DNA of 64,000 nucleotides from an uncultured delta proteobacterium (GCA_963821845.1 CAWGFI010000007.1:54729-118728); one strand, 5' to 3'; shown: positions 4,477-62,387, counted from the stretch's first letter. Notes: generated from the sequence alone by a model not told the origin. Numbers and translations are program-made.

Positions 4477-4542
4477 AAGGACTTTCGTCGCCCTATATGG
4501 GGAAAACGAAAAAGTTGCATCGTCTCCTACCGAAGCGGTATC

Positions 4543-6027
4543 TCACACCCGGTTTATGGGATGCTTCTTCCTGAACCGTATGCGGTATTTCAAACCTGAT
4601 TCCCTTTCCAGCTCTATGTCCCCGTCAAGCTGCCTTTTGGTCAGGTTGTACACGATCTTCAAACCCAGCGACGGGCATTCCTCGAGGTCCAGGTATTCCG
4701 GCAGACCCACCCCGTTATCCGCGAAAAGTATCTCGATTTCGTCGCCTTCCAGGCTGCGCAGCGCTATGTCGATCCGTCCCGCCGAGCGGTCCCGGAAGGC
4801 GTATTTCATGGCGTTGGACATGAGTTCGTTGATGATCAACCCGCAGGGGATCGCCCGATCGATGGAAAAGGGAATGGATTCAAGGTCCAGGTTGAGGGCG
4901 ATGCGCGTATTCAGGCATCGCAGACCGGCGTATATGGTCTTGGTAAGGTCCCCGATGTAATCGCCCATGTCGATGTTGCTCAGGTCCCGTGATTGGTACA
5001 GCTTTTCGTGCACCAGGGCCATGGCCTGAATTCTGTTGCGCATTTCCTGGAAAGACTGCTTGACGCTCCCGTCCTTTATGTTCAGCGTGTGGAGGTTCAT
5101 CAGGCTGGAGATCACCTGCATATTGTTCTTGGTCCGGTGATGAAGTTCCTTGAGCAGGATCTCCTTTTCCTGCAGCGCAATCCGCAAACTCGCTTCGCTG
5201 TCGCTCAACTGCTTTACGTTCATTTTCAGTTCGACGTGCGCCCGGCGCAGTTCGGCAGCCGCCGCTTCCCGTTCGGTCACGTCGCGGAATACCAAAATCA
5301 CGCCCAGGGTATTTCCCTTGTCGTCCTTGATGGGCGCGGCGCTGTCGTCGATGGGTATTTCGGTTCCGTCCCTGGCTATGAGCACGGTATGATTATCCAT
5401 GCCCAGGGTCAGGCCTTCAAGCAGGGCCTTGGCGGCGGGGTTTTCGGCGGGTTGGCGGGTGTTCTTGTCCACGATGTGGAATACCTCGCTCAACTCCTTG
5501 TGCAGGACCTCTTCCAGGTTCCAGCCCATCAGACGTTCCGCGACCGGATTGACGAAGGTTACCAGGCCGTCCCTGTCGGTGGCGATCAAGGCGTCGCCGA
5601 TGCTCCGAAGGGTCGTGGCGAGCCATTTTTCATTTTCCTTGAGGCGCCGTTCGGTCTCGTGCTTGTACAGCGCCATGTCGATGGTGACGCTCAGTTCCCG
5701 TTCCTGGAAAGGCTTGATCAGATACCCATACGGTTCGGTTATCTTGGCCCGTTGCAGGGTATCCTCGTCCGCGTAGGCGGTGACGTAGATGACCGGTATG
5801 TCGAACCGGGTCCGAATCTGTTCGGCCGCGGTCACGCCGTCCATGGACCCCTGGAGCATGATGTCCATCAATACCAGGTCGGGGGACAATTCTTCGGCTT
5901 TTCCGACCGCGTCGTCTCCGGTAAAGACGGTATCTATGGGATCGTATCCCATGCTTTTCAGCCGGTACCGCATGTCCAGAGCTTCAACTCCCTCATCCTC
6001 AACAATCAGTATCTTCGCGCCACGCAT
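4543..6027 (-). CDS. Receiver-PAS-HisKA_2 histidine kinase
   Basis: ILIVEDE/LVLMDI receiver, PAS, ELHHRTKNN H-box, ELMSNAMKYAF, DNGVG, SLGL. Confidence 0.9.
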   Translation of the reverse strand: MRGAKILIVEDEGVEALDMRYRLKSMGYDPIDTVFTGDDAVGKAEELSPDLVLMDIMLQGSMDGVTAAEQIRTRFDIPVIYVTAYADEDTLQRAKITEPYGYLIKPFQERELSVTIDMALYKHETERRLKENEKWLATTLRSIGDALIATDRDGLVTFVNPVAERLMGWNLEEVLHKELSEVFHIVDKNTRQPAENPAAKALLEGLTLGMDNHTVLIARDGTEIPIDDSAAPIKDDKGNTLGVILVFRDVTEREAAAAELRRAHVELKMNVKQLSDSEASLRIALQEKEILLKELHHRTKNNMQVISSLMNLHTLNIKDGSVKQSFQEMRNRIQAMALVHEKLYQSRDLSNIDMGDYIGDLTKTIYAGLRCLNTRIALNLDLESIPFSIDRAIPCGLIINELMSNAMKYAFRDRSAGRIDIALRSLEGDEIEILFADNGVGLPEYLDLEECPSLGLKIVYNLTKRQLDGDIELERESGLKYRIRFRKKHPINRV

Positions 6028-21656: not shown

Positions 21657-22256
21657 AGCGGGTAGCCGAAAACAATACCCGCAAGTGCGCCACGGTCCGA
21701 GTATTGGCAAGCCCAATATGCTTCGTCATTCCGCGGCTTGACCGCGGAATCCAGATTCTTAAAAATATCAAATAATTCTGGACCCCGCGATCAAGTCGCG
21801 GGGCGACGAATATTAAAAATGTGGTGTTATCCGAATGTTTAGTCAAAGGATTGGATGAGTAGAGAGATGGCTTGATAGCGGGTAGCCGAAAACAATACCC
21901 GCAAGTGCGCCACGGTCGCGAGTATTGGCAAGCCCAATATGCTTCGTCATTCCGCGGCTTGACCGCAGAATCCAGATTCTTAAAAATATCAAATAATTCT
22001 GGACCCCGCGATCAAGTCGCGGGGCGACGAATATTAAAAATGTGGTGTTATCCGAATGTTTAGTCAAAGGATTGGATGAGTAGAGAGATGGCTTGATAGC
22101 GGGTAGCCGATACCCGCAAGTGCGCCACGGTCACGAGTATTGGCAAGCCCAATATGCTTCGTCATTCCGCGGCTTGACCGCGGAATCCAGATTCTTAAAA
22201 ATATCAAATAATTCTGGACCCCGCGATCAAGTCGCGGGGCGACGAATATTAAAAAT
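21657..22256. repeat. Tandem ~220-bp repeat (about 2.7 copies), each with a CGTC palindrome doublet
   Basis: agcgggtagccg recurs at 21657, 21877 and 22098; doublets at 21724-21808, 21945-22029 and 22160-22244. Confidence 0.93.
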
Positions 22257-22509
22257 GGCTGCGGACAAGCGGTTCTTATGGTTCACTTATGCCGATCCAC
22301 GTTTTAGTCTATTCTCGGCGGATTCATGAATATGAGAGCGTCCGATTCCGATAGCCCTATCTACGAAAAGATTTTGAACCTTACAGCCGGTGAAATCAGC
22401 GGAAGACCGGCGATAGAGTCGCCGCTTCTTTCTCATCCGTAGCATGGTCTCCGTCAAAAATATTTTAATTTTCCATTTAGTTTTAATGAGTTACGACCGA
22501 TATACTTTC

Positions 22510-52865: not shown

Positions 52866-54432
52866 GGATAATGACGATGACGCGGCTCTGATTCAGGCGT
52901 TTCTGGAGGAGGGCGGCTTTACGCCCGAAATCCGCCGTGTCCAGACCAGGGAAACCATTCGCGATGCGCTCTCCCGGGGTCCCTGGGACGCGGTCATATC
53001 GGATTACGATCTGCCCGGCTTCGACGGTTTGCAAGCGCTGGCTCTGGCCAAGGAATCGGATGGCGATACGCCTTTTATCATGATCTCCGGGGCCGTGGGT
53101 GAAGAGTTCATCGTGGAAGCCATGCGCGCCGGGGCCCAGGATTTCATATCCAAGGATCATCTGGTGCGGCTCGCGTCGTCTATCAATCGCGAGCTGATCG
53201 AAACCGAAAACCGCCGGGCTCGCCGGCGCGCCGAGCAGGCGCTGGCGGACGAATTGAAGATTCGGTCCACCTTGAACGAGCTGTATCAGCCGCTGATTTC
53301 CCCTTCTTCCAACATGGAAAGCATCGCCCTGGAAGTCCTGAACCGGGCCGGGCTGCTGACCGGCAGTCCGCATGGCTTTGTTTCGACTATCGATCCGATT
53401 AGCCGCGAAAGTATCTGCTATTTCTCGCCCGAAATGCTTCCGGAGGAATGCGACTTTGAAAAAGACCAGCGGAAAAGGTTCGCCGGTGGCGAAGAGGGTC
53501 GATGTCCGGGCCTTTGGGGGTATGCGCTCGATACCGGGAAGACTTTTTTCACCAACGATCCTTCATCCTTCCCGAACAGAACCCCGTCCCCTCCGGGCCA
53601 CGTCCCCATGGAACGATTCCTGTCCGCGCCGGTGAAGCTTGGCGAAGAGTTGGTCGGCCAGATAGCGCTGGCCAACAAGTCCGGCGATTATACGGATCAG
53701 GACGCGGAAGTCCTCCAGCGGGTGGCTCACTACTACGCCCTGGCCATTCAACGGATCAGGAACGAGGACCGGATCAGAGCCTCCCTCAAGGAAAAGGAAG
53801 TGCTCTTGCAGGAGATCCATCACCGAGTTAAAAACAATCTGGCCATCATTATCAGCCTGCTCAACCTCCAGGCCAACCACCTGCGCGACGAACGGGTGAG
53901 GGACGCGTTTCAGGATTGCCAGACCCGTATCCGATCCATGGCCCTGATTCACGAAACCCTGTATCAGTCGGCCAACCTGGCCGAACTGGACCTGGGGCAA
54001 TATATCAGAAACCTGGTGAAAACGCTGTCCGCCGCCTATCCGAACAGCTCTTCGCGCCTGGACTTCGAAATAAAGTCGGACAAAATAAACCTGCCCCTGG
54101 ATTATACGATCCCCTGCGGTTTGATTCTCAACGAGCTTATTTCCAACTCCATCAAGCATGGGTTCCCGACGGGAAACCGGGGCAGGATCGTGGTGACCGC
54201 GCAACAGCAGGACGATGAGATCGCGCTGATCGTGAGTGACAACGGAGTCGGTTTTCCTTCGGATATGGACACCGAGCATTCCAAGACGCTGGGCATGAAC
54301 CTGGTGGCCAAACTGGGCGAAGTGCAGCTCAAGGGCAAGATGGAATTGGGCGGGGAAAGCGGCGCCAAGGTAACCGTACGCTTTAAACGTCCGGAAAGCG
54401 GACCCAGCCGCGGATATAAAAACGGGGATTAG
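52834..54432 (+). CDS. Receiver-GAF-HisKA_2 histidine kinase
   Basis: LLIEDNDDD receiver, GAF, EIHHRVKNN, ELISNSIKHGF, DNGVG. Confidence 0.9.
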   Translation: MSTPIRLLLIEDNDDDAALIQAFLEEGGFTPEIRRVQTRETIRDALSRGPWDAVISDYDLPGFDGLQALALAKESDGDTPFIMISGAVGEEFIVEAMRAGAQDFISKDHLVRLASSINRELIETENRRARRRAEQALADELKIRSTLNELYQPLISPSSNMESIALEVLNRAGLLTGSPHGFVSTIDPISRESICYFSPEMLPEECDFEKDQRKRFAGGEEGRCPGLWGYALDTGKTFFTNDPSSFPNRTPSPPGHVPMERFLSAPVKLGEELVGQIALANKSGDYTDQDAEVLQRVAHYYALAIQRIRNEDRIRASLKEKEVLLQEIHHRVKNNLAIIISLLNLQANHLRDERVRDAFQDCQTRIRSMALIHETLYQSANLAELDLGQYIRNLVKTLSAAYPNSSSRLDFEIKSDKINLPLDYTIPCGLILNELISNSIKHGFPTGNRGRIVVTAQQQDDEIALIVSDNGVGFPSDMDTEHSKTLGMNLVAKLGEVQLKGKMELGGESGAKVTVRFKRPESGPSRGYKNGD

Positions 54433-54544
54433 CGAGAGGCGTGAGGCGCGCCTAGTCAGGATTAGACCACGTAGGGCAGGTGGAGCCGCCAGGCGAAACC
54501 CGCCAAATAAAGGCCGAAGGCCGACCGATTTGGAATCTTAATTT

Positions 54545-55147
54545 CTGGATCCCCCGGTCAAGCCGGGGGATGACGAAAAAAAGACTGGATACCCCGGTCA
54601 AAAAAGGACTGGATACTCCGGTCAATAACCATTCAGGCCGGCAAGGTCATGACAAGTTAAAACCTGGATACCCCGGTCGGGGCCGGGGGATGACGAGGTG
54701 GCTGTTGGTTTCACGCCCCTATTTTGAAATATTCGTCATCCCTCGGGTTTTAATATTCGTCGCCCCGCGACTTGATCGCGGGGTCCAGAATTGGCCGAAT
54801 ATTTGAATAACCTGGATCCCCCGGTCAAGCCGGGGGATGACGAAAAAAGGACTGGATACCCCGGTCAAAAAAGGACTGGATACTCCGGTCAATAACCATT
54901 CAGGCCGGCAAGGTCATGACAAGTTAAAACCTGGATACCCCGGTCGGGGCCGGGGTATGACGAGGTGGCTGTTAGCCGACATACCCGGCTTTAAATTTTC
55001 ACCCTCCTGGTCTTTAAACATTCATTGTCTTCGGTTTTTCAAGTATGCCTCGGCTCTTAAATATTCGTCATGTCGCAGCTCTTAAATATTCGTCATGCCT
55101 CGGACTTTAAAATATTCGTCATCCTCCGGCTTGACCGGGGGATCCAG
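54545..55147. repeat. Composite CGTC palindrome array, left flank of GIY-YIG gene 1
   Basis: Full palindromes near 54545, 54663, 54757, 54812, 54930 and 55117; block 54545-54705 is duplicated at 54812-54972. Confidence 0.93.
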
Positions 55148-55432
55148 TCATAAAATAGTATCATATAAGTCCGTCCAGTCAGGATTCCCGTGTTCAATCA
55201 ATTCCACCTTCCATGCTCTTTTCCACTTCTTTAACCTTTTCTCCCGCTGGATGGCCGAAGCCATAGTGGCGTGCAGTTCGTACCACATCAATTGGTGAAG
55301 GTCGTACCGTTTAGTGAACCCGTCTACCACGCCGTTTTTATGTTCCCACACTCTCTTGATTAAATTCGAAGTCACACCGACGTAAAGGGCGCCGTTTCTC
55401 TTGTTAGTCATGAGGTAGACCGCAGGTTGCAT
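55148..55432 (-). CDS. Small GIY-YIG nuclease (URI/COG2827-like), copy 1
   Basis: AVYLM...LYVGVT, conserved Arg (KRVWEH), Glu (AIQREK), Asn (GNP); 94 aa from ATG at 55432. Confidence 0.93.
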   Translation of the reverse strand: MQPAVYLMTNKRNGALYVGVTSNLIKRVWEHKNGVVDGFTKRYDLHQLMWYELHATMASAIQREKRLKKWKRAWKVELIEHGNPDWTDLYDTIL

Positions 55433-55468
55433 AATCAAGGCTTATCTTATTAGAATACTTAGAATAAC

Positions 55469-55872
55469 CTGGATACCCCGGTCGGGGCCGGGGGATGACG
55501 AAAAAAGGACTGGATACCCCGGTCAATAACCGTGCAGGTCGGCAAGGTCATGACAAGTTAAAACCTGGATCCCCCGGTCAAGCCGGAGGATGACGAGGTG
55601 GTTGTTGGTCGTTATGCGGCTATCTGGAATACTCGTCATGCTTCGGGCCTTAATACTCGTCATGCTTTGGGCCTTAATACTCGTCATGCCTTTGGGCCTT
55701 AATACTCGTCATGCCTCAGGCCTTAGTATTCGTTATGCCTCAGGCCTTAATACTCGTTATGCCTCAGGCCTTAGTATTCGTCGCTCCCCCGATCACTCAA
55801 TAATTCGTCATCCCCCGGCTTGACCGGGGGATCCAGGCTTAGCCGAATACCTGAAGAACCTGGATACCTCGG
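55469..55872. repeat. Composite CGTC palindrome array, right flank of GIY-YIG gene 1, with a six-copy 24-nt tandem at 55628-55772
   Basis: Palindromes at 55469-55500, 55564-55595 and 55806-55836; unit AATACTCGTCATGCCTCAGGCCTT. Confidence 0.93.
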
Positions 55873-55881
55873 GGGGAGTCT

Positions 55882-58272
55882 CTATTTCTCAGGTGTCCTT
55901 AACGCTTTTTTAAATTTTGCCGGGTCGAACCGTATGAGGAAGGAGGTTCCCTGGTTCCGGCTCACATCCAGCGAGCCCTTGAGTTGTCGCTCGATCAGGC
56001 TCACCACCAGTTGCAACCCCAGTTTGCCCGTATTTCGAATGTCCACGTCCGCCGGAAGGCCCACGCCGTTGTCGCTCACTTCCAGCTCCACCTCGCTCTC
56101 GCCGACGGCGCGGCCCCGTATGGTTATCTCGCCCTCGAAAGCGGATGGAAAGGCGTGTTTAAGCGAGTTGGAAATAAGCTCGTTCAGGACCAGTCCGCAG
56201 GGGACCATGCAGTCGGCCGGCAACAGGATCTGCTTGTCGATATCCATGTTCAGGCGCACCCCCCCCCGCACCTCCCCTCCCGAGGGGATTCCGTAGGCGC
56301 TCAGGAGCACATTGGCCAGGCTGCTTACATACTCCTTGAGATGCAGCCGCGAGAAATCCCTGGCCTGATACAGCGATTCGTGGATCAGCGCCATGGACTT
56401 GATCCGGGACTGGCAATCGCGAATGAAAACCTTGGCGTCTTTATCCGGCGCCTTGGCCATCTGCAGATTGAGCAGGCTGTTGATGACCGCCAGGTTGTTT
56501 TTCACGCGGTGGTGAATTTCTCCCAGCAGGGTTTCCCGTTCGGCAAGGGCGGCCCGGAGCTTTTCCTCGTCCTGCTTTTGCCGGGAAACGTCATGGATCA
56601 GCGTGAAATAGCCTTTCACCACTCCGTCATGATCGATAAACGGTATCAGGCTGGTGTTGACATATTTGGGCCCGGCTTTTTTGTAGGGCAAGACGCGTTC
56701 ATAGGCTGCTGGACGGCCTGAAAGCGCCTGGTCGACGTACCCGGAAATAACTTCATACGCCTCTTCGCCCGCGACCTCTCGCACGGTCTTGCCTTGAAGT
56801 TCCTCCACGGGCTGTCCGAACCAATGCTCATAGGCCTTGTTGACGATGACATACCGCTGGTCGCTGTCCACGAACGCCACCAGCGCGGGCAGGCCGTCGA
56901 TCAGCAGCCGCATTTGTTCGCGCTGTTCCCGCAGCGCCTCTTCGGCGGCCTTGCGTTTGGTAATGTCGTTGAAAAGAATGGCCACTTTCCGCTCTTCCGG
57001 CCGCCCCACGGGGAAGGCGTACAAATCGTACCACCGGTTGTCGAGATACTTGGCCGCGTTCGTGAACCGCTCCGGCTCGCCGGTCAGGGCGACGCGGCCG
57101 TAGGTTTCGAACCAGTGGTCCTCATGGTCCGGAACCAGCTCCCGCATTCGTTTCCCCACCGCGTCATGCAGTCCGGTCTGCGCGCCGAAGGCCGGATTCG
57201 TTTCCAGGAAGCGGAAGTCGATGGCGCGGTCACTCTCGTCAAAAAGCACCTCGACAATGCAGAACCCCTCGTCGATCTTCTCGAACAGCGTATAATAGCG
57301 CTCCTCGGTTCGCAGCAACGTTTCCTCGGCGGCCCTGCGGGCGGTCATGTCGATTATCGAGCCGATAACCTGCGTGACTCCGCCTTTGGGGCCCCGCGCG
57401 AAAACGGCGTTCCTGCTCATGACCCTGATCCAGCGGTCGTCGGCCGTCTTGAAACGGACCTCGAGTTCGAAAACGTCGTTTTCATCGGCTTTAACCAGGA
57501 GTCTTTGCTGCGCGTTCAGTCTGGGCCGGTCGTCGGGATGAAAAAGGCCGAAAAACCGCCGTTCGCTCATGGAGTTCAGCGTTTCCAGGGTGTACCCTGT
57601 AATGGCCGTGTACTGCGGATTGATGAAGACGACCTTGCTCGTGGTAAAATCGTAGATGAAAAGACCGCTCAGGGAGGACATCAGCGCCTTGTTGACAAAG
57701 GCCTCGCTTTCCCGCAAAGCCTCCTCGGCTCGCTTGCGAGCGGTAATGTCGACAAGGTTGACCCGAATCAGTTCTTTATTTTCGGCTACCGTCATGCCTT
57801 CCACGTGGAAGTAGCGGGCGCCGCCATCCCTGTCCCGTTTGATCAGCCTCACTTCGCATGAGTTTTTGGTCTGAGACTCATGGAGGCCGGTCAGGAGCGA
57901 GAGCCAGTTTTCCCGGTAATCCGCGTCCACGTATTGAGCGAACGTTCTATTGATCAGCCTTGCTCGTTCGATGCCCAGCAGGAGCGCGGCGGTCAGATTG
58001 GCTTCTTTGATTATCCCCGAGGCGTTCATGATAAGGTAGCCCACGGGCGCCAGTTCGAACAGATCGAAGTACTTGAGCCGCGATTCCTGCAAGTCTTCCT
58101 GGGCCTGCCGCAGCTCTTCGTTCTGCAGTTCGAGTTCCACCTGGTGAACCTCAAGCTCGTACACGATCTTTTCCACGTCGCTCCAGGGAATTTTTCTGAG
58201 GTCCGGCCTGGTCGAACGGGTTTTTAGTTTCTTTTCGGCCTTCCGGCGCAATCCATCGACTGGTTTTGTCAT
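55882..58272 (-). CDS. Multi-PAS HisKA_2 histidine kinase
   Basis: ELEVHQVELELQNEEL leader, four PAS-like repeats, EIHHRVKNN, ELISNSLKHAF. Confidence 0.9.
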   Translation of the reverse strand: MTKPVDGLRRKAEKKLKTRSTRPDLRKIPWSDVEKIVYELEVHQVELELQNEELRQAQEDLQESRLKYFDLFELAPVGYLIMNASGIIKEANLTAALLLGIERARLINRTFAQYVDADYRENWLSLLTGLHESQTKNSCEVRLIKRDRDGGARYFHVEGMTVAENKELIRVNLVDITARKRAEEALRESEAFVNKALMSSLSGLFIYDFTTSKVVFINPQYTAITGYTLETLNSMSERRFFGLFHPDDRPRLNAQQRLLVKADENDVFELEVRFKTADDRWIRVMSRNAVFARGPKGGVTQVIGSIIDMTARRAAEETLLRTEERYYTLFEKIDEGFCIVEVLFDESDRAIDFRFLETNPAFGAQTGLHDAVGKRMRELVPDHEDHWFETYGRVALTGEPERFTNAAKYLDNRWYDLYAFPVGRPEERKVAILFNDITKRKAAEEALREQREQMRLLIDGLPALVAFVDSDQRYVIVNKAYEHWFGQPVEELQGKTVREVAGEEAYEVISGYVDQALSGRPAAYERVLPYKKAGPKYVNTSLIPFIDHDGVVKGYFTLIHDVSRQKQDEEKLRAALAERETLLGEIHHRVKNNLAVINSLLNLQMAKAPDKDAKVFIRDCQSRIKSMALIHESLYQARDFSRLHLKEYVSSLANVLLSAYGIPSGGEVRGGVRLNMDIDKQILLPADCMVPCGLVLNELISNSLKHAFPSAFEGEITIRGRAVGESEVELEVSDNGVGLPADVDIRNTGKLGLQLVVSLIERQLKGSLDVSRNQGTSFLIRFDPAKFKKALRTPEK

Positions 58273-58548
58273 CTGCCTACCTTTGAGTTTGCTTGCTCGG
58301 GGCTCCAAGTCCTATAAGTTCATTCAATGGAGAGAGATTCTGCAAGCAAGCCATGGGTGGAAAGAACAGTCGCCTTGCAGATCTATCAGTATACCGAATT
58401 TTTCGGCCTAATCAAAGGCTGTTGCTTTTTTTATCACCGCCCTGTCGCGGAATTCGGAATATTTTTCCTTTTATTCCCGCCAAGATTGAGGAGATACGTT
58501 CTTTTCCGGGGACGCAAGACTGAATTTATGTTTATGTTCTTCTCTTTT

Positions 58549-59361
58549 CCGGACCCCGCGATCAAGTCGCGGGGCGACGAAGTGGGAACGCGTTTGCGAT
58601 TCATTCTTTACTTGGGCGTTTCTCCGATCCAGCCCTTTTTCCTGGACCCCGCGATCAAGTCGCGGGGCGACGGTGATGAACGTCTGTGCCGTTCTGCGCG
58701 CTGTCTGCTCCTTGTAACCTGAACTGGTTTTCACTATCCCCAATTTTTCATGCCCAGTAATGCTTCCCCTCCTCGTCATTCCGCGACTTGATCGCGGAAT
58801 CCAGGCGATTTTATTCTTCATTTACCAATCGACTACATATTGAAATTCAACGACAAATATCCGGATATAAATCCTGCCAACAGGGATTACCACGTTCGAT
58901 TAGTTCCAGTTTCCAGGCTCTTTTCCACTCCTTCAATCGTTTCTCCCGCTGAATGGCTGTTTCCATGGTAGCATGGATTTCATACCAGACGAGTCGATGA
59001 GTATCGTAACGGTTAGTAAATCCCTCTACCACGTGATTCTTGTGTTCCCATATTCTCTTAATTAAATTCGAGGTTACACCCACATAAAGTGTGCCGTTTC
59101 GTCTGTTTGCCAGTATGTATACCGCCGGTTGCTTATACATTGCCCTTTTTCTGGACCCCGCGATCAAGTCGCGGGGCGACGAAAGTGAATACTCGGGATT
59201 AATATTTCCTTTTCCTTAAAAATGCGCGGAACTGTCGAATACTTCAGTCCGCTCCTTCCCGACAATTTATTGGACTTCCCCCCTTCGTCATTCCGCATGG
59301 TATGGAACTCGCCGCCCAACCGCCCCCCCTCGTCATTCCGCGGCTTGACCGCGGAATCCAG
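58549..59361. mobile_element. Putative GIY-YIG/CGTC-palindrome element 2
   Basis: Palindromes at 58549-58579, 58642-58672, 58774-58804, 59151-59181 and 59331-59361 surround the nuclease gene; mobility is inferred. Confidence 0.55.
58847..59140 (-). CDS. Small GIY-YIG nuclease, copy 2
   Basis: AVYIL...LYVGVT, same catalytic residues; about 75% identical to copy 1 by manual alignment (23 differences in 93 positions). Confidence 0.93.
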   Translation of the reverse strand: MYKQPAVYILANRRNGTLYVGVTSNLIKRIWEHKNHVVEGFTNRYDTHRLVWYEIHATMETAIQREKRLKEWKRAWKLELIERGNPCWQDLYPDICR

Positions 59362-59398
59362 GGGATTTCCTTCTCATTGACCGAGGGCGCGCTATCTC

Positions 59399-62387
59399 TC
59401 ACTTCATGTTGGTCACGTCTTCGATAGCCAGCAGGATCAAGTCCCGGGTTTCATCCGTGGCGCCCATCCGCCGGCCGTTCAGGATCATCCTTTTTATTCC
59501 AATGGAAGGGAACTCATGCCTGACTTCAAAGTCCTCGAAGGATTGATCGTGGGAAAGGATATCTTCCAGCGCCGTTCGCAAATCGGGTATGTCCCACTGC
59601 CGGTTTCCCAGATCGTAGATCTCTGACCCCCGTGGTATTCTTGGGAGACACTTTAAATTTTGTATAAAAAGAACGGTTGGCCGAGAGAACCTTCAAATCC
59701 TTGTCGAGCACCAGTAACGGTTCGCGCAGGGTATTGACGATAGTTTCGTTGAGCAGAATTTCGTTCAATTTCCGAGTGGACTGTTTCTGTTCGGTTATAT
59801 CCAGAAAAGTAATCACCGCCCCGTCTATGGAATCTTCAGCCGTGCGGTAGGGAGAGACGCGCATGGAGTACCACGTGTTTTCCCGGGTCTTCACCTCCGC
59901 CTTGATCTGCTGCAAGGTGGCTATCACCTTTTGGATGTCAACGAAAATGTTGTCATATTCCAGGTTGTGGGAAATATCGGTTATGGGGCGTCCCACGTCG
60001 GAGGGGATCAGGTTGAAAAGGTCGGCGGCTCTGACGGTAAAACGTTTGATGTGCAGATGGTTGTCCACGAATATGGTGGGCACGTCGATGCTGTCCAGCA
60101 GGTTCTTCATGTCATTGTTGGTCCTGGAGAATTCCTCTAATTTTCCCTGCAACTCGGAATTGACCGTTACCAGCTCTTCGTTCAGTGATTGCTGTTCTTC
60201 CTTGGATGTTTCCAGCTCCTCGTTCGCGCTTTGAAGCTCCTCGTTCGTGGATTGCAATTCCTCGTTTGATGACTTCAGCTCTTCGTTCGATGTTTCCAGC
60301 TCCTCGATGGTAACCTGCAAGCTGATCTTGGCTTCATCGAGTTCACGTTTCATCTGCCTTACCTGGTCGGTCGCATCGAAAGCGTCGATGACGGCGTCAT
60401 CCGATGGCGCCGTTTCATTCCGGGTCGCCGCCGGTTCGGTCTTTTCAAAAACCACCAGCATGAGCCCCCGCATGGATTCGGGCTCATCAAGGTATTTGAC
60501 GGTCATCTTCACGGTAATAAAACTGCCGTTGGTCTTGACCCGGATGTTCTCGCCGCAGGATTCATTTTTGTTGGACTTTGCCTTGCGCATGGCCGAGGAA
60601 GCTGCAACCGCAAACCTTCACGGGCCATTTCGATGATGTTGAATTTGGGCGACCCCTGGGGAGGCTCCAGAAACTCTCCGGTGCGGCCGTGGAGATGGAT
60701 GATATCCCCTTGCCGATTGATGAGCACGCTGGGAGGGACGAATTTTTCCAGCAGAAGCCGTTCCAGCGCCAGGGGAAGGGGAACGTTTTCCTTGGACCGT
60801 TTCTCCGGGACCGCGTTTCCCGATTTTTCGAACCGGCGGTAAGGGGAAAATCCACCAGGGATAGACCGGCGGTTATGGAATCCCTGCGAGAGTAGATTTT
60901 CCACTTTTTATCTTCGAGCCGGAAGAGATCGACGAATCCCCCGATGGTCTCGGAAGACCCCAGAAACAGGATTCCACCAGGTCTCAGGCTGTAATGAAAA
61001 AGAGGGATCAGTTTCTTCTGCAGTTCGGCTTTCAGATAGATCATGACATTGCGGCAGCAGATAAGATCAAGCCGGGTAAAGGGGGGATCCTTGATCAGAT
61101 TCTGCGACGCGAACACGACCGTCTCCCGGACTTCCTTTTTTATGCGATAGTTCCCGTTTTCTTTTACCAGGAAACGCTCGAGCCGATCCGGTTTCACGTC
61201 GGCGCGATCACCGACGGATAAACTCCCGCCCGCGCTATATCGATGGCGTTGGTGTCGATGTCCGTGGCGAAGATCTGAACCTCGAATTCCTTGTTCATCG
61301 TTTTCATGATGTCATGGATGGCCATGGCCACGGAATAGGCCTCCTCGCCGGTGGAACAGCCGGGAACCCATACCCTGACCTGCTCGCCCTCCGCCTTTTT
61401 CTCCAACAGGGCGGGCAGGGGGCGTTTTTCCAGCGCCTCGAAGGCCTCGGGGTCCCGGAAAAAATTGGTGACGCCGATGAGCAGCTCCCTGAACAGAAGA
61501 TCCACTTCCTGCGGATTGTGCTGCAGAAAGCGCACATAAAGGTCGAGGTTGTCTAGCTGATGGATGACCATGCGGCGATCGATGCGCCTGAGGATAGTGT
61601 TTTCCTTATACTGGGAAAAATCGTGCCCCGTCCTGGCCCTGACGATTACGCATACCCTGCCGAGCGCGTCCTCCACGTGTCCGTCCGGAGGAAGCTTTTC
61701 GGTTATTTTCCGGACGGCGTGTTTGGCGTAAGCCAGCAGTTGCTCGGGCATCTTGTCCGGAGGCAGCACGTAATCGACCAGGCCGGAGGTGATAGCGTTG
61801 AGCGGCATGCTGTCATACCGGGCGGAGGCGGGCTCCTGGACCATGGCCATGCCCAGTTCCGCTTTTATCGCCTTCAGACCCAGCGACCCGTCGCTTCCCA
61901 TGCCCGAAATCACGACGCAGATGGCTTTTTCCCGCCGGTCCTGCGCCAGGGAACGAAAGAAGGAATCGATGGGGGCCCGTATCCCCTGCCGCTGAACCAC
62001 TTCCAGGAGCGTGAGGGCGCCGTTCAGGACGGCCATGTCCTTATCCGGGATCGTGACATACACGGTATTGGGTTCTATACGCAAACCGTCCCGAGCCGGT
62101 ATGACCCTCATTATGGTATGCCGCTGAATCAATTCCGGCAGTATGCTGGCGTGCTGGGGGTCCAGATGGGAAATCAGAATAAAGGCCATGCCGCTGTCGG
62201 AAGGCATGCTATCGAAGAAAGCCTCGAAGGCTTCGAGACCGCCCGCCGAGGCGCCGATTCCCACGACATAGAAGGAATTTCGATCGACTAAACCCTGATC
62301 GTCCACTTTTACCAGCGCCTTGGTGGTGTTTTCGACCGTTTCACCGGAGGGTTTCTTCGAGTTATGTTCTTTCCGAGGTTTCGGCAT
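59399..62387 (-). CDS. CheB-CheR-PAS fusion protein, about four frameshifts
   Basis: VVGIGASAGG, SHLDP, SGMGSDG (CheB); IGVTNFFRD, GCSTGEEAYS, ATDID, CRNVMIY (CheR); ELQSTNEELQSANEELET coiled coil; PAS. Confidence 0.88.

Follow-up and report, generated by a model that had tools for sequence, protein, structure and literature searches.

The window examined here, a 64,000-nucleotide stretch of DNA (GCA_963821845.1, CAWGFI010000007.1:54729-118728) from an uncultured deltaproteobacterium-like metagenome-assembled genome (MAG), contains two small genes for GIY-YIG nucleases, ssn-1 and ssn-2, each of which lies between two inverted copies of a short hairpin that begins with CGTC and ends with CCAG. 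Comparison of the proteins and of the repeats makes it very likely that both genes are members of the Ssn family (SsnA-like, CDD cd10448) and that the local hairpins are their cognate repeats, known as Ssn-related motifs (SRMs) and, in Neisseria, as NTS. The pairing of gene and hairpin in this genome is a further example of the already published Ssn/SRM system. An earlier note on this DNA, made from the sequence alone, had proposed a new repeat-mobilising system; the claim of novelty falls, because the association, the enzymology and the analogy with insertion sequences and RAYT transposases were already described by Chenal et al. (Nat Commun 2025, PMC11893778).

Chenal et al. named the Ssn family and defined the NTS of Neisseria (CGTCATTCCCGCGMAVGCGGGAATCYRG) together with the broader SRM. 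SsnA is a 94-amino acid (aa) single-domain GIY-YIG protein and a site-specific endonuclease of single-stranded DNA (ssDNA). It binds the hairpin solely as ssDNA and on one strand, cuts a few nucleotides (nt) upstream, and is inactive on double-stranded DNA and on RNA; the substitution Y6A, Y17A or E64A abolishes its activity. The three nt before the palindrome were found to be critical for cutting, and the C right after the palindrome for binding. Three more homologues, that of Wolbachia among them, cut their own repeats, bringing to four the proteins with direct binding and cleavage published. An SRM was reported near 71% of the ssnA homologues and on both sides of 42%, and a homologue is encoded by 81% of the genomes with more than 200 SRMs. 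In N. meningitidis, SsnA reduces the integration of NTS-bearing transforming DNA. Our search of the literature on the Ssn family found no paper later than this one.

Ssn-family nucleases and their probable cognate hairpins

The two genes and their four arms are listed below, with coordinates counted from the first letter of the window.

55117-55147, plus strand: hairpin arm CGTCATCCTCCGGCTTGACCGGGGGATCCAG, directly abutting the stop codon of ssn-1 (TCA, 55148-55150)
55148-55432, minus strand: ssn-1, single-domain GIY-YIG nuclease assigned to the Ssn family; open reading frame (ORF) of 94 aa from ATG, with an alternative TTG start at 55438
55469-55500, minus strand: 32-nt hairpin variant CTGGATACCCCGGTCGGGGCCGGGGGATGACG, minus-strand reading CGTCATCCCCCGGCCCCGACCGGGGTATCCAG, 36 nt upstream of the ssn-1 ATG
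58774-58804, plus strand: hairpin arm CGTCATTCCGCGACTTGATCGCGGAATCCAG, 42 nt past the ssn-2 stop; identical to the commonest genomic variant (26 copies)
58847-59140, minus strand: ssn-2, second GIY-YIG nuclease assigned to the Ssn family; ORF of 97 aa
59151-59181, minus strand: hairpin arm CGTCGCCCCGCGACTTGATCGCGGGGTCCAG, 10 nt before the ssn-2 ATG; exact copy of the second commonest variant (24 copies)

Both reading frames are intact. A Pfam scan matched the two proteins to PF01541 (GIY-YIG; E 1.8e-15 for ssn-1 and 1.2e-16 for ssn-2) and to no other family, the match spanning residues 6-77 of the 94 in ssn-1 and residues 15-87 of the 106-aa TTG-start ORF that contains ssn-2, and an NCBIfam scan of both returned sub-threshold matches only. 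The sole match in a PDB sequence search was a remote one to UvrC (1yd6, E 0.0016), and no Ssn structure was found there. Membership of the family is supported by the alignment, in which neither paralogue and none of the 12 homologues inspected departs from Y6, Y17 and E64; these residue numbers are equal to those of the inactivating SsnA mutants. ssn-1 shares 63-71% identity with its homologues, one of them from Neisseriaceae; the window proteins are 63% identical to the homologue of Bergeriella denitrificans (Neisseriaceae) over residues 1-94, and 55-71% identical to those of the 80 homologous loci described below. The two window genes, which are separated by 3.4 kb, share 74-76% identity as proteins and 73% as DNA, in agreement with the two intact genes of about 75% identity given in the earlier note, and ssn-2 is equally close (75%) to ssn-1 and to the copy in the nearest other genome. 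The low ratio of nonsynonymous to synonymous divergence (dN/dS 0.06) and the saturated dS of the pair indicate that ssn-1 and ssn-2 are old paralogues under purifying selection.

Each gene fills the spacer of a CGTC...CCAG / CTGG...GACG doublet, with the arms 0-42 nt from the coding sequence. This architecture is observed directly, and the earlier note had its coordinates and distances right. As the polarity of the arms is symmetric, the unit reads CGTC...CCAG - gene - CTGG...GACG on either strand. The chance of finding both correctly oriented arms at most 60 nt from a random 291-bp interval is 1.8e-5. Stem types sort by gene, with the CCCCCGG type at ssn-1 and the CGCG type at ssn-2, as might be expected if each paralogue had a palindrome variant of its own; the tag types do not sort in this manner.

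The hairpin is the dominant repeat of the window, as had been noted before, occurring 31 times in the window and 35 times on the contig. The draft genome (G000; 4.05 Mb, 23 contigs, 71% complete) has approximately 244 copies by nhmmer profile, or 200 by fuzzy matching; a strict pattern gave 114 genome matches, compared with 0 for the reversed control. In the 31-nt unit, CGTC is followed by a 9-bp stem around the loop CTTGA, and the return stem by CCAG. The CGTC tag is present in 154 of 154 full-length copies, and the CCAG tail is essentially invariant. Folded as ssDNA, the hairpins reach -10 to -11 kcal/mol (z about -3 to -5). The stem covaries at pairs 6/26, 7/25 (four pair types), 8/24, 10/22 and 13/19, which are 95-100% Watson-Crick, whereas pair 5/27 is A-T in 117 and G.T in 30 of the full-length copies, the one further Watson-Crick pair being G-C in a single copy. 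Since G.T at this pair is tolerable on the CGTC strand only, the hairpin should pair better on that strand than on its complement, and this predicted difference fits the published one-strand recognition.

The published SRM consensus, HGTCWYN(0-2)YYVSBRHN(0-5)WNVSBRGN(0-2)RNCYNB, matched the genome 168 times, compared with about 27 matches in Markov-1 controls, and 123 of the 244 nhmmer copies satisfied it. In the local logo, the invariant CGTC and CCAG positions correspond to those that are critical for cutting and binding in PMC11893778. The meningococcal system (SsnA, NMB0047/NMV_0044) and the one described here share a GIY-YIG protein that has about 94 aa, one domain and the residues Y6, Y17 and E64, inverted flanking hairpins tagged with CGTC and ending in CCAG, repeat copies in the hundreds per genome, clusters resembling bacterial interspersed mosaic elements (BIMEs) and the repeat-gene-repeat configuration. 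They differ in that the NTS has 28 nt and a 4-nt loop, and in that here two diverged paralogues stand 3.4 kb apart in an uncultured, deltaproteobacterium-like MAG known from sequence alone. Two points weigh against assigning the locus to this system. About half of the local repeats, comprising the CGTCGC/CGTCAC subfamily and some stems, lie outside the published SRM consensus, although the subfamily misses it at the W position only; and the transformation-limiting role is known from naturally competent Neisseria only and may not apply to a deltaproteobacterium-like host.

The local repeats also resemble the superfamily of CGTC-tagged repetitive extragenic palindromes (REPs) described by Di Nocera, De Gregorio and Rocco (BMC Genomics 2013, PMC3733652). 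In both, a CGTC head is followed by a palindromic stem with a short loop and then by an unpaired CCA tail, and both occur between genes as monomers, dimers and clusters. Unlike the present analysis, that survey found no associated enzyme, which bears out the statement in the earlier note that CGTC-tagged REPs had been reported with no dedicated transposase. The survey is not cited in PMC11893778. Because the consensus matches, we infer that the CGTC REPs of the one study and the SRM/NTS of the other are one repeat superfamily.

The gene-hairpin association across bacteria

A homologue scan with one genome per species gave 206 relatives, and the best 80 of the 206 loci were examined. These loci originate from Desulfobacterota-like MAGs, from Gamma-, Beta- and Alphaproteobacteria, and from MAGs labelled Caldisericia, Chitinispirillaceae, Planctomycetales and others. 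Among the ssn carriers encountered are species that can be cultivated, such as Methylophilus sp. Leaf416 and Desulfosarcina widdelii. At most of them the upstream arm is on the plus strand and the downstream arm on the minus strand, 2-50 nt from the gene, and at each locus the stem/loop variant of the arms is that genome's own. Counted with a generic detector of CGTC-tagged hairpins, correctly oriented hairpins had a density of 8.1-8.2/kb within 60 nt of the gene, compared with approximately 0.2/kb past 1 kb (about 40-fold), and wrongly oriented hairpins within the same 60 nt had a density of 1.5/kb, which corresponds to an orientation enrichment of about 5-fold. At least one proximal arm was present in 54 of the 78 loci used for arm counts, and both arms in 21. 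The enrichment of CGTC palindromes beside the homologues, for which the earlier note had proposed a test, is thus a direct observation that extends across phyla.

An ssn homologue is present in 12 of 41 related genomes. NTS-like patterns numbered 114 in the genome studied here, 30 in the sole other genome of the same family (G001) and 0-10 in all others; these two are the only genomes of the 41 with close homologues and the only repeat-rich ones. The two close ssn copies of G001 are flanked by that genome's own 27-28-nt variant with a GAAA or GGAA loop. Distant homologues from the same class (40-52% identity) are accompanied by a different CGTC-tagged hairpin, ACGTCGCATCCC...GGGATGCTCCTCG; at two loci with homologues of approximately 48-51% identity (L087, 1405-1435 and 2005-2035; L088, 1427-1457 and 1849-1879), the ACGTCGCATCCC-loop-GGGATGCTCCTCG copies are direct, not inverted.

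In several groups the gene occupies a common syntenic site, namely in four Methylophilus loci and in five Lysobacterales-type loci of different genera, and a common flanking context was also seen in betaproteobacterial, Arenicellales, Sedimenticola and Halopseudomonas sets. The flanks of the syntenic sets align at 66-95% on both sides. Sets that extend across genera are L032/L033/L068/L071/L076, L007/L008/L015/L018 and L060/L074/L077/L078, and the hairpin stems at syntenic sites differ by compensated changes (e.g. TCCCGG, TTCCAG, TTCCGG). Two loci carry a second, decayed arm-flanked copy beside an intact ssn: in L013 (Sedimenticolaceae, 4530-4790) it has an in-frame deletion of about 135 nt that removes the catalytic core, and in L024 (Nitrosomonas communis, 4500-4860) it is interrupted and frameshifted. 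In both, similarity reaches past the arms, which suggests local tandem duplication.

Doublets and the repeat cluster around the ssn genes

Apart from the two ssn units, the genome contains 33 gene-free tail-to-tail doublets, which have the polarity of the ssn arms and spacers mostly of 22-29 nt, with a conserved sequence of approximately 24 nt, AAGTTATTAAATAcTTTGAAGAAC, in either orientation. They usually combine an arm of the ATTCCGCGG type with one of the GCCCCGCGA type. Such doublets had been recognised in the earlier note, which did not mention a further 18 arranged head-to-head (e.g. C4:35075-35149, C12:45247-45320 and C8:97603-97680). The head-to-head doublets have a conserved spacer of 13-16 nt (about 14 nt), ACAACAACCACCT, and their stems, of the GCCCCGA and ACCCCGG types, differ from those of the tail-to-tail doublets. 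This doublet composition is a BIME-like organisation. Upstream of the 154 full-length copies, T is found at position -1 in 88% and at -2 in 66%; a target-site duplication was looked for at repeat copies and none was seen. The repeat density of the ssn contig is approximately five times the genome mean (35 copies in 123 kb vs 244 in 4054 kb). An intergenic region at 21657-22257 consists of 2.8 tandem copies of a 221-bp unit (97% identity) with one tail-to-tail doublet per unit, indicating that doublets multiply by ordinary tandem duplication too.

The repeat cluster around ssn-1 is unusually elaborate. The remaining features of the region are as follows.

54545-54973: repeat cluster left of ssn-1, with hairpins at 54545-54575 (minus), 54664-54695 (minus), 54758-54788 (plus), 54812-54842 (minus) and 54931-54962 (minus)
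55045-55131, plus strand: tandem array of 5' half-repeats (AATATTCGTCATGCCTCGG...), 25 nt x 3.4, running into the full arm at 55117
55565-55836: hairpins 55565-55595 (minus) and 55806-55836 (plus), bracketing a tandem array of 5' half-repeats, 24 nt x 6.4, at 55628-55782
55882-58308, minus strand: PAS/histidine-kinase gene between the two ssn units (ORF and translation)
58551-58579 and 58642-58672, minus strand: pair of hairpins, further copies in the cluster
59331-59361, plus strand: hairpin copy that closes the cluster right of ssn-2

The left cluster includes an empty doublet of the tail-to-tail type (54758-54842), with a spacer of 23 nt, and a segment of 162 bp that is directly duplicated, its copies (54545-54706 and 54812-54973) being 99% identical and 267 bp apart; a third, partial copy of this segment (55501-55579, 79 nt, 94%) lies on the far side of ssn-1. 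Tandem arrays of half-repeats occur at 54576-54625, 54843-54892, 55045-55131 and 55628-55782, and a genome-wide regex search found such arrays solely at the ssn-1 cluster. Units of the 5' half (24-25 nt, AATAYTCGTCATGCCTCRG...) lead into full plus-strand arms, and those of the 3' half (24 nt, GACCGGGGTATCCAG followed by a T-run in the minus-strand reading) adjoin minus-strand arms. An Rfam scan of 54300-59600 detected no known RNA family. The PAS/histidine-kinase gene is a bystander in the repeat-gene-repeat arrangement; when its orthologue was sought in G001, no clear one was found, the best match having 34% identity. Farther to the right, a 63-nt tandem repeat (2.2 copies, 73% matches, 60166-60306) lies in the coiled-coil-like part of an ORF on the minus strand (59526-60590).

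Function and spread of the repeats

Judged from its homology with the characterised Neisseria and Wolbachia enzymes, each Ssn protein would bind its hairpin when the DNA is single-stranded, would act solely on the strand that reads CGTC-stem-loop-stem-CCAG, and would cut a few nt 5' of the CGTC tag by means of Y6, Y17 and the Mg2+-binding E64, with no activity expected on duplex DNA or RNA. We infer this enzymology of the ssn-1 and ssn-2 products from the proteins characterised in PMC11893778. The earlier claim that the nuclease nicks the hairpins is upheld to the extent that published homologues bind and cut them, and has to be narrowed to ssDNA and to one strand. The role of ssn is probably the control of repeat-carrying ssDNA intermediates, which may arise in incoming, recombining or replicating DNA.

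It is extremely unlikely that no enzymatic link exists, i.e. that the hairpins accumulate between genes or act as terminators or insulators and came to lie near ssn by chance or through local duplication. The hairpins are indeed stable stem-loops, and local duplications are present within the ssn-1 cluster, but chance or duplication does not account for an enrichment that depends on distance and on orientation in 80 loci of many phyla, each with genome-specific variants, nor for the low probability of both arms surrounding a random interval, and binding and cleavage have been published for four homologues (PMC11893778). The enrichment across genomes and the published assays effectively refute such an explanation. 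A free-standing GIY-YIG homing endonuclease, which would resemble I-TevI and spread via a double-strand break in the empty allele, is hardly credible. The genes are small and patchy (12 of 41 relatives), and they have a weak match to TIGR01453 (group I intron endonuclease) over residues 6-35 only, but at 22 bits this match is well below the cut-off of 56, and the proteins, of 94-97 aa only, have no DNA-binding domain, so that membership of TIGR01453 was rejected. In addition, there is no intron or intein context, the locations are syntenic and stable, and the characterised homologues do not cut duplex DNA (PMC11893778). Ssn proteins thus share the catalytic fold with the I-TevI family and with the N-terminal domain of UvrC, but differ from them in having no DNA-binding or other domain, an ssDNA target, and no intron or repair-complex context.

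A parallel in organisation is RAYT/REPIN (REPtron), in which a low-copy gene also lies between inverted copies of the genome's own hairpin, doublets and BIME-like repeat arrays are formed, and the protein recognises an ssDNA hairpin and a 5' tetranucleotide tag. RAYT genes, too, occupy syntenic and stable positions, and ssn would likewise behave as a resident, possibly domesticated, partner of its repeats, as RAYTs do for GTAG REPs. The enzymes are unrelated in fold and chemistry, RAYT being a Y1 HUH tyrosine transposase of the IS200/IS605 type and Ssn a GIY-YIG hydrolase, and the tags are GTAG and CGTC, respectively. Membership of RAYT/REPIN was rejected on these grounds, the flanked genes matching GIY-YIG and not PF01797. 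We also rejected a RAYT-driven mobilisation of the CGTC repeats in this genome, since no CGTC repeat lies within 3 kb of any of its three PF01797 (Y1 HUH transposase) matches. Two transposase-like genes of the Y1 (IS200/IS605) type stand 4 kb from each other, at C23:213490-213813 and C23:217948-218289, and neither has a CGTC repeat in that range of 3 kb.

Compatible with membership of the Ssn family, although we consider it doubtful, is the proposal of the earlier note that Ssn is the mobilising enzyme of the CGTC repeats, the arm-gene-arm unit being autonomous and the empty doublets its non-autonomous derivatives. Nicks made by Ssn 5' of the hairpins might conceivably start copying or gene conversion, to be completed by host functions. 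Formulated more specifically, and only tentatively, Ssn/SRM could be the counterpart of RAYT/REPIN for CGTC repeats: opposite-strand nicks 5' of the hairpins, at the two outer ends of a tail-to-tail doublet, would trigger replicative or recombinational copying, and the 85-nt hetero-doublets would be gene-less derivatives of the arm-gene-arm unit. The arms of ssn-2 are identical to the two most frequent variants, which have 26 and 24 exact copies, so numerous as to indicate recent amplification, and the same two arm types build the canonical 85-nt hetero-doublet. Tail-to-tail doublets are a defined composite with their conserved 24-nt spacer, and this spacer is similar to roughly the first 16 nt of the ssn-1 leader, GTTATTCTAAGTATTC: 12 of 16 positions match in 3 of 25 doublets, compared with 0.12% of shuffles, and at least 10 match in 10 of 25, compared with 5% of shuffles. 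The fivefold repeat density of the ssn contig and the absence of CGTC repeats within 3 kb of the Y1/RAYT-like genes point in the same direction. In their Discussion, Chenal et al. (PMC11893778) themselves remarked that NTS-ssnA-NTS resembles an insertion sequence, drew the parallel with IS200/IS605-type transposases and with REP/BIME, and suggested domestication and repeat expansion.

Several observations argue against mobilisation by Ssn. Neither a transposition event nor an empty site or a target-site duplication was seen, and the genomes include no close relative for an empty-site comparison. A cross-genome comparison of doublet spacers with the inner ends of ssn units, covering 18 doublets in the flanks, gave as its sole perfect match a self-match and speaks neither for nor against mobilisation. 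The common syntenic position of ssn across species and genera indicates that the arm-gene-arm unit is not hopping and that ssn is a stably inherited resident there; the second, decayed copies of L013 and L024 have the appearance of local tandem duplications reaching past the arms; and the 221-bp unit is an example of how plain tandem duplication multiplies doublets as well. As is established for the superfamily, GIY-YIG enzymes hydrolyse DNA and form no covalent DNA intermediate, and no strand-transfer activity is known in a GIY-YIG hydrolase of the Ssn type. Such a hydrolase alone is therefore not known to carry out strand transfer, and any spread would need host replication or recombination. 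The features of this genome are compatible with the idea of derivatives and are not proof of it.

The main value of the locus is that the orphan CGTC REPs of 2013 and the SRM/NTS hairpins of 2025 are evidently one superfamily, the proposed enzyme partner of which has already been characterised. It extends the published system by a deltaproteobacterium-like host that carries two old paralogues, by a covarying 31-nt repeat variant and by BIME-like composite doublets. If it is true that Ssn drives the spread of the repeats, the origin of a second major class of bacterial REPs would be explained, and a new route of repeat mobilisation, driven by a GIY-YIG enzyme without transposase chemistry, would be added.

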